From Escherichia coli (GTDB taxonomy: Bacteria > Pseudomonadota > Gammaproteobacteria > Enterobacterales > Enterobacteriaceae), in assembly GCF_965641715.1 (NCBI RefSeq), contig NZ_OZ282453.1: a stretch of 64,000 bases of DNA. One strand, written 5' to 3'. The position numbers and the translations under genes were made by a program. The notes under the pieces were generated by a model. It was given only the letters and a program-made list of their open reading frames with translations, was not told where the DNA came from and made no database searches. Shown here one piece after another: positions 6,623 through 60,437 of the stretch; position 1 is the stretch's first letter; every line of letters begins with the position of its first letter.

Positions 6623-7180
6623 TTACTGAATAACCAGCGTATTAATGATGTTTTCTGCGGTGGTCTGCGCTTTTTGCTGATCGTCAGCTGGCAGAGTAAT
6701 TTGCATGGTCAGCAGTTGATTACCCACGTTACCCAGAATAACGGAAGAGTACGCCGTCTGGCCTTTCGCGGAGATAATACTGTCTAACTGCTGCATTTTG
6801 TGACCTTTCAGCTCAATGGCTTTATTGGTTACCACTTGCAGCTGCGGATCGCGGCTACGTTGCTGATCTTCCAGACGCTTCGCCAGCACCGCCAGATCTT
6901 CTTTCGGATCATCGCCCATGATGACGATGACTGCTTTCTGCCCGGTGGCGTCGGACCAGACATGCATGTTATTGGCCTGCGTTCCCAGCTTACCGCTCTG
7001 GTCGGTCATATCCGCTGGCAGCGAGAAACTTAACTTGCCATCAAGCAGGTTGACGGGATTCCCGGTAGCGTTACTTTCCGCGACCGAACCCTGCGCCGTA
7101 GCGTTAGTGTCTTTATCATCACAGGCCGCAAGCCCCATAACCAGCAGGCCAATTCCGACATATTTAACCAGATTGCGCAT
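6623..7180 (-). CDS. dcrB: Periplasmic lipoprotein DcrB
   Basis: ORF 6623..7234; start [20 protein letters not shown] with lipobox. Confidence 0.9.
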
Positions 7181-7252
7181 TGACTTCTTCCTTTCGATAA
7201 ACGGCCATAACGGCTCATTCATCCATCTTATCACAACTCTGATAACGAACCT

Positions 7253-7918
7253 TTAACTCGCCTGCAAAGCGTTGATTTCGGATTTATCTGCCAGTCTTTT
7301 CAACAGCATATTGAGTAATACGCCATACATTGGCAGGAAGAAAACGATACTGATTAACACTTTGAAACAGTAATCGACCAGCGCGATTTCCATCCAGTGT
7401 TCAGCCATAAAGGCATCCGGGCTACGCCAGAAGGCAATGAAGAAAAAGGCCAGCGTGTCGCTGACGTTACCGAACAGTGTGGACGCTGTCGGTGCCAGCC
7501 ACCAGCGGCGACTCTGACGCAGGCGGTTAAAAACGTGCACGTCGAGGATCTGTCCCAGCGCGTAGGCCATGAAACTGGCGGTGGCGATACGGGCGACAAA
7601 CAGGTTGAAGTGAGCGAGTGCGCCGAATCCCTGCCAGGAGCCCATATAGAACAGCGACGAGATGACGTAGGAGATCAGCAACGCCGGGATCATCACCGCA
7701 AAGATGATACGACGGGCCAGCGGTGCGCCAAAAATACGCACGGTCAGGTCAGTAGCAAGGAAAATAAACGGAAAGCTAAACGCGCCCCAGGTGGTATGGA
7801 AACCAAAAATGGAGACGGGAAGCTGAACCAGATAGTTACTGGAGGTGATCACCAGAAGATGAAATAACGATAACCAGAACAACGCCTTATAGCGTTGCGT
7901 TTGCGAGAAAACGTTCAT
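7253..7918 (-). CDS. yhhQ: Queuosine-precursor transporter
   Basis: 221-aa membrane ORF, same length as K-12 YhhQ. Confidence 0.9.
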   Translation of the reverse strand: MNVFSQTQRYKALFWLSLFHLLVITSSNYLVQLPVSIFGFHTTWGAFSFPFIFLATDLTVRIFGAPLARRIIFAVMIPALLISYVISSLFYMGSWQGFGALAHFNLFVARIATASFMAYALGQILDVHVFNRLRQSRRWWLAPTASTLFGNVSDTLAFFFIAFWRSPDAFMAEHWMEIALVDYCFKVLISIVFFLPMYGVLLNMLLKRLADKSEINALQAS

Positions 7919-8138
7919 ATTGTACCTTTTTGATTAACCATTGGGGTGAGGGAACCCAATACGTACGACACGTCTGTTACCTTAACATAATAACGTGCTT
8001 ACCCTTTTTTCGAGCCGCCGCATGATACTGCTTTACGTTGACAATGCAATGGTTAATTTTCACGCAATCGTTAACCTGGTTTGCTTACGGACTCACAGGG
8101 CGTAAACTAGCGCCGTTTTTTTATGTGATGAGAAGAAA

Positions 8139-8384
8139 ATGACCGATCTCTTTTCCAGCCCTGACCACACTCTCGACGCACTTGGCCTGCGCTGCCCGGA
8201 ACCCGTAATGATGGTGCGCAAAACAGTGCGCAATATGCAGCCAGGTGAAACGTTGCTGATTATTGCTGACGATCCGGCGACGACCCGCGATATCCCTGGG
8301 TTTTGTACCTTTATGGAACACGAACTGGTTGCCAAAGAGACGGATGGACTGCCTTATCGTTATTTGATTCGTAAAGGTGGTTAA
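8139..8384 (+). CDS. tusA: Sulfur carrier protein TusA
   Basis: 81 aa with CPxP motif (LRCPEPV). Confidence 0.95.
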
Positions 8385-8394
8385 GGTGGATCAC

Positions 8395-8525
8395 GGACTG
8401 TTACCCTAACCCTCTCCCCAGAGGGGCGAGTGGACCGATCGCACTCAATGTTGCTGCTTGAAACCGGTACGTAGGACGGATAAGGCGTTCACGCCGCATC
8501 CGGCAAGCAAGTGTAATGGAATACA
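8395..8525. repeat. REP-type intergenic palindromic repeats
   Basis: gtaggacggataaggcgttcacgccgcatccggcaagc and ccctctccccagaggggcgag palindromes. Confidence 0.55.
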
Positions 8526-8528
8526 CAA

Positions 8529-8837
8529 ATGGATTATTTAATTCCTGTTTGCCTGGGATTGCTGGGATTGTTCGCGATGTTCGCCCCCAATTGGCTGATG
8601 CCTGTTTTAATCGCCGTGGGGGGATGGCTGGTGGTACTTGCCTGTGGTTGGCTCTGGCTAATGATTTTTTTACCTTTACTTAACGGCGTCGGGCTTGCTT
8701 ATGCCCTGTGGTTGATGTTCAAAAGGCCATCATTCACGTCCCGCCTGGTTGCTACATGTTGTGTTATCTCCGTCATTCTGATGTTAGCGCTATATTACAC
8801 TTTCCTGACCATGCCACCGTTCCCGGCCCAGCACTAA
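8529..8837 (+). CDS. Hypothetical small membrane protein (102 aa); may be non-coding
   Basis: ORF track only; very hydrophobic; sits between convergent tusA and zntA. Confidence 0.2.
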   Translation: MDYLIPVCLGLLGLFAMFAPNWLMPVLIAVGGWLVVLACGWLWLMIFLPLLNGVGLAYALWLMFKRPSFTSRLVATCCVISVILMLALYYTFLTMPPFPAQH

Positions 8838-8869
8838 CCCTGATAGCCAGAGGCTATCAGGCAACACCT

Positions 8870-11068
8870 TTATTTCCTGCGCAACAACCTTAACGCATTC
8901 GCCGTTACCAGCACCGTCGCACCCGTATCTGCCAGCACCGCCAGCCATAGTCCGGTCATTCCTAACAGCGTGGTGACGAGGAAGATCCCTTTCAGCCCCA
9001 GCGCAATAGTGATGTTCTGGCGGATATTGGCGTGAGTGGCGCGTGCCAGTTCAATCATTTGCACCAGACCGCGCAGGTGGTTATGGGTTAATGCTGCGTC
9101 GGCGGTTTCCAGCGCCACGTCTGTGCCGCTGCCCATTGCAATCCCGATGGCGGCAGCTTTCATCGCTGGCGCGTCGTTAATACCGTCACCGACCATCGCC
9201 AGCGGCGCATGTTGATTCAGCTCGGTCACCGCTTTGACTTTATCTTCCGGCAACAGGCCCGCTTTAAACTCCAGCCCCAGCTCCCCGGCAATTGCCGCCG
9301 CTGCGCGTGGATTATCGCCGGTGAGGATCACCCCTTTGACGCCCAGCGCGTTCAGTTCACTGATGGCAGTTGCAGCATCGGCGCGCAGGGTATCCTGTAA
9401 CGCAATGACACCAAGCACGTCATCGTTACGTACTACCAGCACTACCGTTTGCCCGGCGCTTTCCAGTTCGTTAATTAAACCAGCAAATGCATCAGCGGGA
9501 TGTTTCCCGGCAGCGCAAATCAATACGCGCTCACCGTTAACCTGCGCTTCAATGCCAGACCCGACCAGCGCCCGCTGTGATTCGGCGGCGGGAATGGCGA
9601 GTGCAGCAACCTGTGCTTCGCGCACGATGGCCTGCGCCAGTGGATGCGTCGCGCCTTGCTCGACCGCCGCCGCCAGTGTCAGCAGTTCAGATTCACTAAT
9701 ACCCGTTGCCGGATGAATCGCGGTAACGCGCGGTTTACCGACGGTCAGCGTACCGGTTTTATCAAACGCCACCTGGGTAACACGACCTAGCTGCTCCAGC
9801 GCCGCACCGCCTTTAATTAACGCCCCACGACGTGCCGCTGCTGCCAGCCCGGAGGTAATCACCGCGGGCGTGGAGATAACTAACGCACACGGGCAGCCAA
9901 TCAGCAGCAGCGTCAGCCCTTTATAAATCCACTCCTGCCAGCTTGCGGCAAACAGCAGCGGCGGCACCAGCGTTACCAGCAGGGCGACGGCCATAATTGC
10001 TGGCGTATAAATGCGGCTGAAACGGTCGATAAACCGCTCAATGGGGGCGCGGCGCTCTTCGGCTTCTTCGATCAGTTTCAGAATCCGGTCAATGGCGCTG
10101 GCACCCGGTTCTGACAGCACTTCCAGCGTTACCAGACGGTCTACGCTGGTGGCGCCTGCAGGAACTTTATCGCCCGTCGCGCGCTCCACCGGAATGGATT
10201 CTCCGGTCAGGGCGCTTTCATCAAAACTGGCAAACGGTGAGAGCAGTTTACCGTCGGCAGGCAAACGCCCACCTGCGGCGACTTCAATCACATCGCCAGG
10301 GCGCAGGCTGTTAATCGCCACCTCTTCCCGCTCACCGTTACGCAGGCGCGTGGCGGTTTCTGGTTTCAGCGCCATTAACGCGCTAACGCCCTGACGCGCG
10401 CGGCTGGCGGCCCAGCCTTCCAGTCGTTCACCAATCAAAAACAGCAGCAACACCATCGCAGCTTCAGCCGTTGCGCCAATAAACAGCGCACCAATAGCAG
10501 CTACGCTCATTAAGGTTTCAATGGCGAAGTAGCTGCCGGATTTGATCAGCCGTAATGCCTGACGAGCAATCGGGTACAGCCCAACCAGCGTGGTCGCGAT
10601 AAACGCCAGTTGCCCGAACGGATGATTGAACTGCTCCAGACCCCAGCTGATTGCCATCATCACGATTAGCGTAATCAGCGGCAGATTCTCTTTCAGGCGC
10701 GATTCTTGTGGCTCGTCGGCGGCCTGCTCATCGCGCAGGGAATAGCCCGCTTTTTGCACCGCAGATTCAACCTGGGCACGGATGTCATTGTCGGCATCAA
10801 CCACCAGTTTTTCGGTGGCGAACAGTACCTGCACCTGATTCACGCCTGCAAGCTGGCGCACGGCATTTTCTACCTTGCGCGCACAGGCGGCGCAGTCCAT
10901 GCCGCTGACTTTCCAGCTATAGCGGGTGCCGGAGACGTTTTCAGAGAGCGTTGGCGTGCTGGAACATGCGCCGTCGCAGCAACAGTCGTTGGCGTTCTGT
11001 ACCGTGGTTAGCGGTTTGAACGCAGCAAATTGAGGGGCTTTCTTGCCGTGATTGTCAGGAGTCGACAT
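8870..11068 (-). CDS. zntA: Zn/Cd/Pb-exporting P1B-type ATPase
   Basis: 732 aa; CxxC metal-binding motif (GMDCAAC), CPC, DKTGT phosphorylation site, GDGINDAP. Confidence 0.97.
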   Translation of the reverse strand: MSTPDNHGKKAPQFAAFKPLTTVQNANDCCCDGACSSTPTLSENVSGTRYSWKVSGMDCAACARKVENAVRQLAGVNQVQVLFATEKLVVDADNDIRAQVESAVQKAGYSLRDEQAADEPQESRLKENLPLITLIVMMAISWGLEQFNHPFGQLAFIATTLVGLYPIARQALRLIKSGSYFAIETLMSVAAIGALFIGATAEAAMVLLLFLIGERLEGWAASRARQGVSALMALKPETATRLRNGEREEVAINSLRPGDVIEVAAGGRLPADGKLLSPFASFDESALTGESIPVERATGDKVPAGATSVDRLVTLEVLSEPGASAIDRILKLIEEAEERRAPIERFIDRFSRIYTPAIMAVALLVTLVPPLLFAASWQEWIYKGLTLLLIGCPCALVISTPAVITSGLAAAARRGALIKGGAALEQLGRVTQVAFDKTGTLTVGKPRVTAIHPATGISESELLTLAAAVEQGATHPLAQAIVREAQVAALAIPAAESQRALVGSGIEAQVNGERVLICAAGKHPADAFAGLINELESAGQTVVLVVRNDDVLGVIALQDTLRADAATAISELNALGVKGVILTGDNPRAAAAIAGELGLEFKAGLLPEDKVKAVTELNQHAPLAMVGDGINDAPAMKAAAIGIAMGSGTDVALETADAALTHNHLRGLVQMIELARATHANIRQNITIALGLKGIFLVTTLLGMTGLWLAVLADTGATVLVTANALRLLRRK

Positions 11069-11102
11069 GGCATCCTCCGGTTAAGTTTTTTCTCATTAAC
11101 CG

Positions 11103-11136
11103 AAGGATACACTCTGGAGTCGACTCCAGAGTCAAG
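11103..11136 (-). promoter_or_regulatory. zntA promoter with ZntR (MerR-type) operator
   Basis: Perfect 22-bp palindrome ACTCTGGAGTCGACTCCAGAGT (11111..11132) between -35 TTGACT and a -10-like element, giving long MerR-type spacing. Confidence 0.8.
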
Positions 11137-11141
11137 TTTTA

Positions 11142-60402: not shown

Positions 60403-60437
60403 TCATGCCTGATGCGGCGTGAACGCCTTATCAGGCC
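60403..60437. repeat. REP element
   Basis: gcctgatgcggcgtgaacgccttatcaggcctac. Confidence 0.7.

Follow-up and report, generated by a model that had tools for sequence, protein, structure and literature searches.

An open reading frame of 102 codons between tusA and zntA of Escherichia coli is likely a small membrane-protein gene missing from most strains

The locus studied here raises the question whether a very hydrophobic open reading frame (ORF) of 102 codons, located between the convergent genes tusA and zntA of Escherichia coli, codes for a small membrane protein or is simply part of a non-coding spacer. It lies in a stretch of 64,000 nucleotides of contig NZ_OZ282453.1 (assembly GCF_965641715.1), which we refer to as the window. 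The first-pass annotation of the window had named both possibilities and had described the ORF as unannotated. The latter holds relative to strain K-12 and not elsewhere, as the NCBI annotation pipeline PGAP lists the ORF in strain A30 as the hypothetical protein WP_000385059.1, and UniProt has the window sequence as the uncharacterized entry A0A066QZ38. The exact window protein and its main alternative allele are each found on at least 1000 public contigs, and a literature search with gene names and protein accessions returned no paper on this ORF. What was already known is therefore the sequence, held in RefSeq and UniProt as a hypothetical or uncharacterized protein; new here are the coding evidence, the distant homologues linked to tusA, the proposed ancestral gene order and the deletion beside the repeat TMECO no. 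16. On the evidence given below, the ORF is likely to be a genuine protein-coding gene, specifying a small, very hydrophobic protein of the inner membrane. The central features of the locus are as follows.

8139..8384, + strand: tusA, coding for the sulfur carrier TusA (from the ORF list; annotated as tusA in strain A30)
8518..8521, + strand: GGAA, a Shine-Dalgarno-like motif 7 nt 5' of the ATG (comparison of 10 loci)
8529..8837, + strand: likely gene for a small polytopic membrane protein (RefSeq 'hypothetical protein'), 102 codons, ATG start (selection, syntenic homologues, predicted helices)
8870..11068, - strand: zntA, coding for the Zn/Cd/Pb P-type ATPase, the convergent downstream neighbour (from the ORF list; A30 annotation)

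tusA (+) and zntA (-) flank a convergent spacer of 485 bp (8385-8869), as first described, and the strong hydrophobicity of the ORF product was likewise confirmed, with a grand average of hydropathy (GRAVY) of +1.40, three Lys or Arg residues, one Asp and a terminal His. The TusA protein of the window is 100% identical to that of K-12 by tblastn.

Conservation of the reading frame, proposed as a check in the first-pass annotation, was examined by scanning the GTDB species, each represented by one genome. The ORF was present in five Escherichia representatives (Escherichia sp. E1V33, E. coli SCPM-O-B-8794, Escherichia sp. MOD1-EC7003, E. albertii NBRC 107761 and E. whittamii). All five, as well as three further E. 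coli alleles, have 102 codons and no insertion or deletion, and a fourth further E. coli allele (L005) carries 9 additional nucleotides in frame. The 78 variable sites among eight alleles fell on codon positions 1, 2 and 3 in the numbers 22, 17 and 39 (p = 0.006). Pairwise dN/dS (omega) of the ORF, calculated by NG86 counting, ranged from 0.13 to 0.54. Pooling four roughly independent pairs gave 45 synonymous and 38 nonsynonymous differences, corresponding to a pN/pS of 0.27 (binomial p = 6.5e-9) and to a nonsynonymous share of 46% where 75% is expected under neutrality. The signal was separately significant for codons 1-44 (p = 0.013) and codons 45-102 (p = 6e-8). When the same substitutions were placed at random they caused more amino-acid changes than observed, with P <= 0.125 in 6 of 7 pairs and a minimum below 1e-4. 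Two Huaxiibacter-type alleles, described below, gave an omega of ~0.44 over 66 codons, a weak result in the same direction. These substitution patterns show purifying selection on the ORF frame, weaker than that acting on the neighbouring tusA and zntA.

Nucleotide conservation was tried as a coding test and dropped, as the true intergenic regions flanking the locus are more conserved than the coding sequences (CDSs). The yhhQ-tusA and zntA-yhhN intergenic regions of E. coli and E. albertii are 97% identical, compared with 87% for the ORF and 87-93.5% for the neighbouring CDSs. The length of the ORF was no better guide, since in 13% of dinucleotide-preserving shuffles of the 485 bp one or another frame contained an ORF that reached 102 aa or more. 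With length and nucleotide conservation both uninformative, the decision rests on evidence at the codon and protein levels, which makes this locus a calibration case in which only the former, together with synteny, told coding sequence from spacer. As a separate observation, the intergenic regions 7919-8138 (yhhQ-tusA) and 11069-11141 (zntA-yhhN) are 95.5-100% identical between E. coli and other Escherichia, against 87-96% for the flanking CDSs; such conservation would imply dense regulatory constraint on these two regions.

Protein-level evidence came from distant homologues. A word-indexed search of 5.8 billion proteins returned Escherichia sequences only. An exhaustive HMMER profile search of 1.84 billion cluster representatives then found proteins of 83 aa (P0036, E = 1.5e-5) and 84 aa (P0039, E = 5.3e-4), and a second profile search added one of 86 aa (P0044). 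They are 33-38% identical to the ORF product, at a distance at which the DNA alignment with the ORF is lost. P0039 and its cluster are hypothetical proteins of Huaxiibacter chinensis and Lelliottia amnigena. All three genes lie on the same strand as tusA, 35-50 nt 3' of it, within the neighbourhood yhhS-dcrB-yhhQ-tusA. In the Huaxiibacter-type loci a dctPQM tripartite ATP-independent periplasmic (TRAP) transporter operon (L012:4423-7221; L016:4410-7208) is inserted between the small gene and zntA, and the linkage of the small gene is therefore with tusA and not with zntA. These searches and gene orders show a small family, confined to Enterobacteriaceae, whose members always lie directly 3' of tusA on the same strand.

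A further gene was encountered in some of the loci compared.

L004:1871-2365 (- strand); L008:4378-4872; L009:4369-4863; L011:688-1176: gene of 162-164 aa between the small ORF and zntA, not found in the window

It is carried by E. coli GF4-3, Escherichia sp. MOD1-EC7003, E. albertii and the enterobacterium L011, in which the small gene is followed by a convergent gene of 162 aa, 58% identical to the 164-aa gene of Escherichia. The order tusA, ORF, then in convergent orientation the 164-aa gene and zntA, was thus seen in four lineages of two genera, and from its presence in both E. albertii and a second genus we infer that it is the ancestral arrangement. By these gene orders, the tusA-zntA interval appears as a site of recurrent gene gain and loss across Enterobacteriaceae. 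PGAP names the 162-164-aa protein 'DUF2004 domain-containing protein', a Pfam scan assigned it to no family at E <= 0.001, and its dN/dS is ~0.2.

The predicted properties of the ORF product are those of an integral membrane protein, with several hydrophobic helices of membrane-spanning length and the basic residues on one side. AlphaFold2, run on a 19-sequence alignment, placed helices at residues 4-18, 24-39, 42-65 and 69-94, with a mean pLDDT of 71 and values of 80-83 for residues 51-90. All basic residues (K65, R66 and R72) are located in or next to the loop that joins helices 3 and 4. Following the positive-inside rule, this loop would be cytoplasmic and both termini of the predicted four-helix protein periplasmic. 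The homologues of 83-86 aa are shorter by ~19 residues, roughly one helix, and start with MK or MR, as would suit a three-helix protein whose N-terminus is inside. An internal DNA duplication was considered as the source of the additional N-terminal helix in Escherichia, and none was detected. Ten residues are invariant across the family (P25, G32, W33, G55, M63, R72, S81, M85, L88 and F98). No Cys, His or acidic residue is conserved family-wide, which argues against catalysis and against metal or sulfur chemistry, and the protein is probably non-catalytic, as judged from its sequence.

No significant match was obtained when the ORF product and its distant homologues were scanned against Pfam and NCBIfam (best hits PAP2_3 at E = 4.2 and NF009243 at 14.7 bits for a cut-off of 95 bits), and scans against PHROGs and PADLOC gave no match. 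A sequence-profile search of PDB found nothing at E <= 1, and Foldseek comparison of the AlphaFold2 model with PDB nothing at E <= 0.001, the best hit (E = 1.3) belonging to generic helical-bundle noise. The uncharacterised YhhL (DUF1145, 89 aa) resembles the ORF product in size and in its very hydrophobic multi-helix make-up and is encoded in the same neighbourhood (rsmD-yhhL-yhhM-yhhN-zntA-tusA). Homology between the two was rejected, as hhalign of the family profile with YhhL gave a probability of 0.1%; they differ further in that the ORF family has no Pfam or NCBIfam model and that the ORF is missing from K-12.

The spacer also contains repeats and a hairpin, and the ORF itself short repeated tracts.

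8398..8432, - strand: degenerate BoxC/PIT/TMECO triplex-motif repeat, a relic (4 substitutions from the published consensus)
8471..8505, + strand: single canonical repetitive extragenic palindrome (REP), GTAGGACGGATAAGGCGTTCACGCCGCATCCGGCA (stem-loop fold, core scan, many genomic copies)
8553..8570, + strand: 9-bp tandem repeat CTGGGATTG x2 inside the ORF (in-frame variation among strains)
8618..8623, + strand: G6 homopolymer, a frameshift site (disrupted allele P0035 reproduced exactly by a 2-nt deletion; P0026 approximately by a 1-nt deletion, 9 mismatches left)
8665..8671, + strand: T7 homopolymer, the main frameshift site (a 1-nt deletion reproduces P0040 exactly and P0042, P0045 and P0028 within 1-3 residues)
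8839..8861, no strand assigned: perfect 10-bp hairpin with a 3-nt loop between the stop codons of the ORF and zntA, candidate shared 3'-end structure or terminator (inverted repeat and fold)

The element at 8471-8505 has the properties of a REP, being an extragenic, multicopy palindrome of ~35 bp that folds into a stem-loop; its classification was based on the type GCCGGATG...CCGGCCTAC, which we take to be the REP consensus. A scan of the window with the 28-nt core (8478-8505), allowing up to 3 mismatches, found a second copy at 60406-60433 on the - strand with 2 mismatches, and no match to the core occurred in 100 shuffles. The repeats of the spacer have a median of 34 matching places per E. 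coli genome, with many in every genome. The sole match of an Rfam scan was to the REP-derived naRNA4, below threshold, and is explained by this REP. The first-pass annotation had reported a cluster of REP-like palindromes at 8395..8525, of which one canonical REP stands; a single REP makes neither a bacterial interspersed mosaic element (BIME) nor a cluster, and the other element of the spacer is derived from BoxC/TMECO. The published consensus of the latter is CCCTCNCCCN3-6GGGNGAGGGN3GGGNGAGGG (Holder et al. 2015, PMC4666352). In the window copy, 4 substitutions break the first and third triplex blocks, and it is for this reason regarded as a relic and not as an intact member of the class.

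The orthologous copy in K-12 matches this consensus exactly and is the published TMECO no. 16 (3,608,684-3,608,719; Holder et al. 2015, PMC4666352). The K-12 spacer measures 101 bp and has cleanly lost the REP, the ORF and the hairpin, ~395 bp corresponding roughly to 8471-8866, and the deletion directly adjoins the BoxC/TMECO element. TMECO loci have been described as unusually prone to rearrangement among E. coli strains (Holder et al. 2015, PMC4666352), and gene loss beside such an element is seen here in clean form, in keeping with the published link between these repeats and instability. In K-12 (L002:4651-4751) the BoxC element ends with a perfect 9-bp hairpin, ACCGATCGC...GCGATCGGT, whose 3' arm is split by a 7-nt GCTTGCA-like stretch in the window (8437-8470), in E. 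coli eco-241 and in E. albertii. This stem of K-12 indicates that the deletion haplotype also carries a small stem-creating insertion or deletion.

For the hairpin at 8839-8861 the folding energy is -16.4 kcal/mol on the + strand (z = -4.2) and -17.1 kcal/mol on the - strand (z = -3.2). It is kept in alleles without the 164-aa neighbour, with an altered loop in L007 and L010. A terminator scan did not call it, owing to the lack of a clear T-run, and it is probably a shared 3'-end structure of the two convergent transcripts. No promoter-like or terminator-like site was called in the stretch from tusA to the ORF. GGAA is found 7-9 nt before the start codon in all 10 loci compared, in the form AAGGAA in two distant genera and in L007.

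Taken together with the gene orders, these features suggest a history for the gene that we propose. The ORF would ancestrally have been the second cistron of a tusA operon, as it stands 35-50 nt from tusA, with no repeat between them, in other genera. Insertion of the BoxC element now seen as a relic and of one or more REPs would then, in Escherichia, have pushed the two genes apart to the present 136-460 nt, so that the ORF would be reached by read-through from tusA across the repeats, with expression probably lowered. The product would be a small, non-catalytic, polytopic inner-membrane protein and, if acting at all, an accessory or structural partner. If the gene contributes little to fitness, its raised omega, its slippage alleles and its loss from most E. 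coli would be explained, and a dispensable accessory role would account for the repeated loss. By its distribution the gene has a long history in Escherichia, and most E. coli, K-12 among them, have lost it by deletion. Should the protein be made, the E. coli accessory proteome would gain one more small membrane protein that is invisible to K-12-centred work, and TusA, a well-studied sulfur carrier, a conserved but optional membrane neighbour.

Several observations weigh against a genuine gene of this kind. Of 5,426 complete E. coli genomes, 317 have the ORF, always as a single chromosomal copy, and ~94% are without it, an absence that the first-pass annotation had overlooked together with the existing annotation and the BoxC/TMECO relic. 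Its omega is higher than those of tusA and zntA (<0.1; zntA pairs whose C-termini differed by one codon were misaligned and were dropped) and somewhat above that of the 164-aa neighbour (~0.2). NG86 counting, by which the pooled pN/pS was obtained, takes no account of transition bias, and recombination may have made the four pairs less than fully independent. The length of the ORF is by itself not beyond chance, and the databases hold truncated or chimeric versions of 50-106 aa. The Shine-Dalgarno-like motif of the window is weak (TGGAA). No sigma-70-like promoter was found by a scan of 7900-9000, which is uninformative since tusA's own promoter was likewise missed. No homologue was found 3' of tusA in Klebsiella pneumoniae, Pluralibacter gergoviae or two noisy long-read assemblies of enterobacteria, and the family is accordingly patchy within Enterobacteriaceae. 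The AlphaFold2 model is of moderate confidence and was built on a shallow alignment of 19 sequences. Finally, the topology, the co-transcription with tusA and the role as an accessory subunit are things that we infer.

Part of these observations would also be expected if the ORF were a decaying remnant, functional ancestrally and, in E. coli lineages like that of the window, now poorly expressed behind REP and BoxC, contributing nothing and not yet deleted. The gene is missing from 5,109 of the 5,426 genomes, evolves with an omega 3-10 times that of tusA and zntA, has a Shine-Dalgarno-like motif weaker than the AAGGAA of the distant genera, stands behind repeats that widen the gap to tusA in Escherichia, and has frameshift alleles at homopolymer runs. 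We nevertheless regard a remnant as rather unlikely, because purifying selection is still seen when alleles within or near E. coli are compared: the alleles L003 and L004 differ by 14 synonymous and 6 nonsynonymous substitutions (omega 0.13), and the window allele differs from L006 by 4 and 3, respectively. In 40 evenly spaced carriers a CDS was annotated under the match in every case, and 38 showed no net change in length; of the two others, one had an in-frame insertion of 9 nt and GF4-3 a 1-nt difference in alignment length with its 309-bp CDS intact. Intact alleles, moreover, are found on thousands of contigs and disrupted ones on tens.

A more specific proposal is that the gene belongs to a membrane-protein family, restricted to Enterobacteriaceae, that was the ancestral operon partner of TusA, tethering or modulating the sulfur relay or linking it to ZntA, and that escaped study because K-12 had deleted the gene. 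From the sequence comparisons at hand this would be a quite improbable role. The pairing of the ORF with tusA itself has an analogy, and no more than that, in YeeD/TsuB and YeeE/TsuA, where the gene for a TusA-fold carrier adjoins, and is probably co-transcribed with, a membrane-protein gene. YeeE/TsuA, however, is a thiosulfate transporter of ~350 aa with conserved cysteines, belonging to the Sulf_transp family, whereas the ORF product has 102 aa, no conserved residue of that type and no Pfam match. A small hydrophobic protein encoded next to the gene of a P-type ATPase, zntA, also resembles the small membrane proteins that modulate transporters (KdpF with KdpABC, MgtS/MgtR with MgtA and AcrZ with AcrB). 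These regulators are 29-49 aa long with one helix; the ORF product differs in its 102 aa and four predicted helices, and its gene is convergent with zntA and outside the zntA operon, is linked to tusA, and in Huaxiibacter is separated from zntA by dctPQM.

The preferred reading, a genuine gene for a small membrane protein, has also to be set against the non-coding alternative of the first-pass annotation, according to which the ORF would be a chance frame in T-rich DNA, conserved as the 3' untranslated region of zntA, as an antisense RNA or as a structural element. In its favour, a frame of this length turns up in 13% of shuffles of the region; nucleotide conservation is not specific to coding sequence, the true intergenic neighbours being 96-100% identical in E. 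coli and E. albertii; and the ORF is antisense to the stretch just downstream of zntA. Nearly open as well, with 0-2 stops in all alleles, is a second frame (offset +2) across 8529-8837, but T occupies the second position in 49% of the ORF codons, and an open +2 frame is consistent with such a hydrophobic codon bias. The antisense frames, by comparison, contain 4-11 stops across the ORF. The third-position excess and the pooled pN/pS are specific to the ORF frame, the protein homologues extend beyond the reach of DNA alignment and are separated from zntA by dctPQM in Huaxiibacter, and Rfam holds no family matching the region except the sub-threshold, REP-derived one. A spacer is on these grounds largely refuted and very improbable, and the small membrane protein, the other possibility named at the outset, is supported by the kept frame, the codon periodicity, the pN/pS of ~0.27 and the syntenic homologues after tusA.

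The least probable explanation is a membrane-damaging protein (the toxin of a toxin-antitoxin pair, a holin-like protein or a defence effector), for which the small size, the extreme hydrophobicity, the patchy distribution and the frequent loss or frameshift would speak, but which is at odds with the silence of PHROGs and PADLOC, with a stable chromosomal place between core genes across genera having no mobile element, phage or antitoxin partner, and with four predicted helices where known type I toxins are mostly below 60 aa with a single one.

As to variation among strains, two main allele groups of the ORF were seen in E. coli, with ~99-100% and ~91-92% nucleotide identity to the window. 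The 8553-8570 repeat behaves as an in-frame mini-VNTR (variable number of tandem repeats) in the first helix, as a 105-aa allele (L005, P0003) has an insertion of 3 residues (9 nt) and a 99-aa allele (P0002) a deletion of 3 residues at this place. Frame-disrupting indels in close relatives had been named in advance as an argument against coding. They do occur, in a small minority of alleles, and can mostly be reproduced by a deletion in the T7, G6 or A4 runs, so that the coding reading stands. Most of the disrupted alleles tested were reproduced exactly or within 1-3 residues by deletion of 1-2 bases from a homopolymer. Besides those listed above, P0027 was reproduced by a deletion in the A4 run, and P0043 and P0029 matched the 1-nt T7 deletion only approximately (8 and 13 mismatches). 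The disruptions of P0032 and P0033 map outside homopolymer runs, and no single indel reproduced P0023, P0031 or P0034. Some of the disrupted alleles may be sequencing errors.

An ATG at 8516, upstream of the ORF start, opens the +2 frame (8516-8683 in the window), and gene callers fuse it to the conserved C-terminal part, which gives the chimeric proteins P0023, P0026 and P0028. It is the nearly open +2 frame that allows such chimeras to arise from slippage, and long slippage ORFs stand in the databases as separate proteins (P0023, P0026, P0028 and P0029).

Two further observations concern the tusA-zntA locus as a whole. In Pluralibacter the gap between tusA and zntA is only 3 nt. When the window (7096-10367) was compared with E. 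coli eco-241 (L003), the ORF alleles differed by 9.4% and the flanks by ~5%, and dS was 0.22 for tusA and 0.13 for zntA, values that we judge high for a pair within one species. The ORF allele of the window is nearest to that of Escherichia sp. E1V33, with 7 differences. These divergences suggest that the locus carries old polymorphism or has recombined between lineages of Escherichia.

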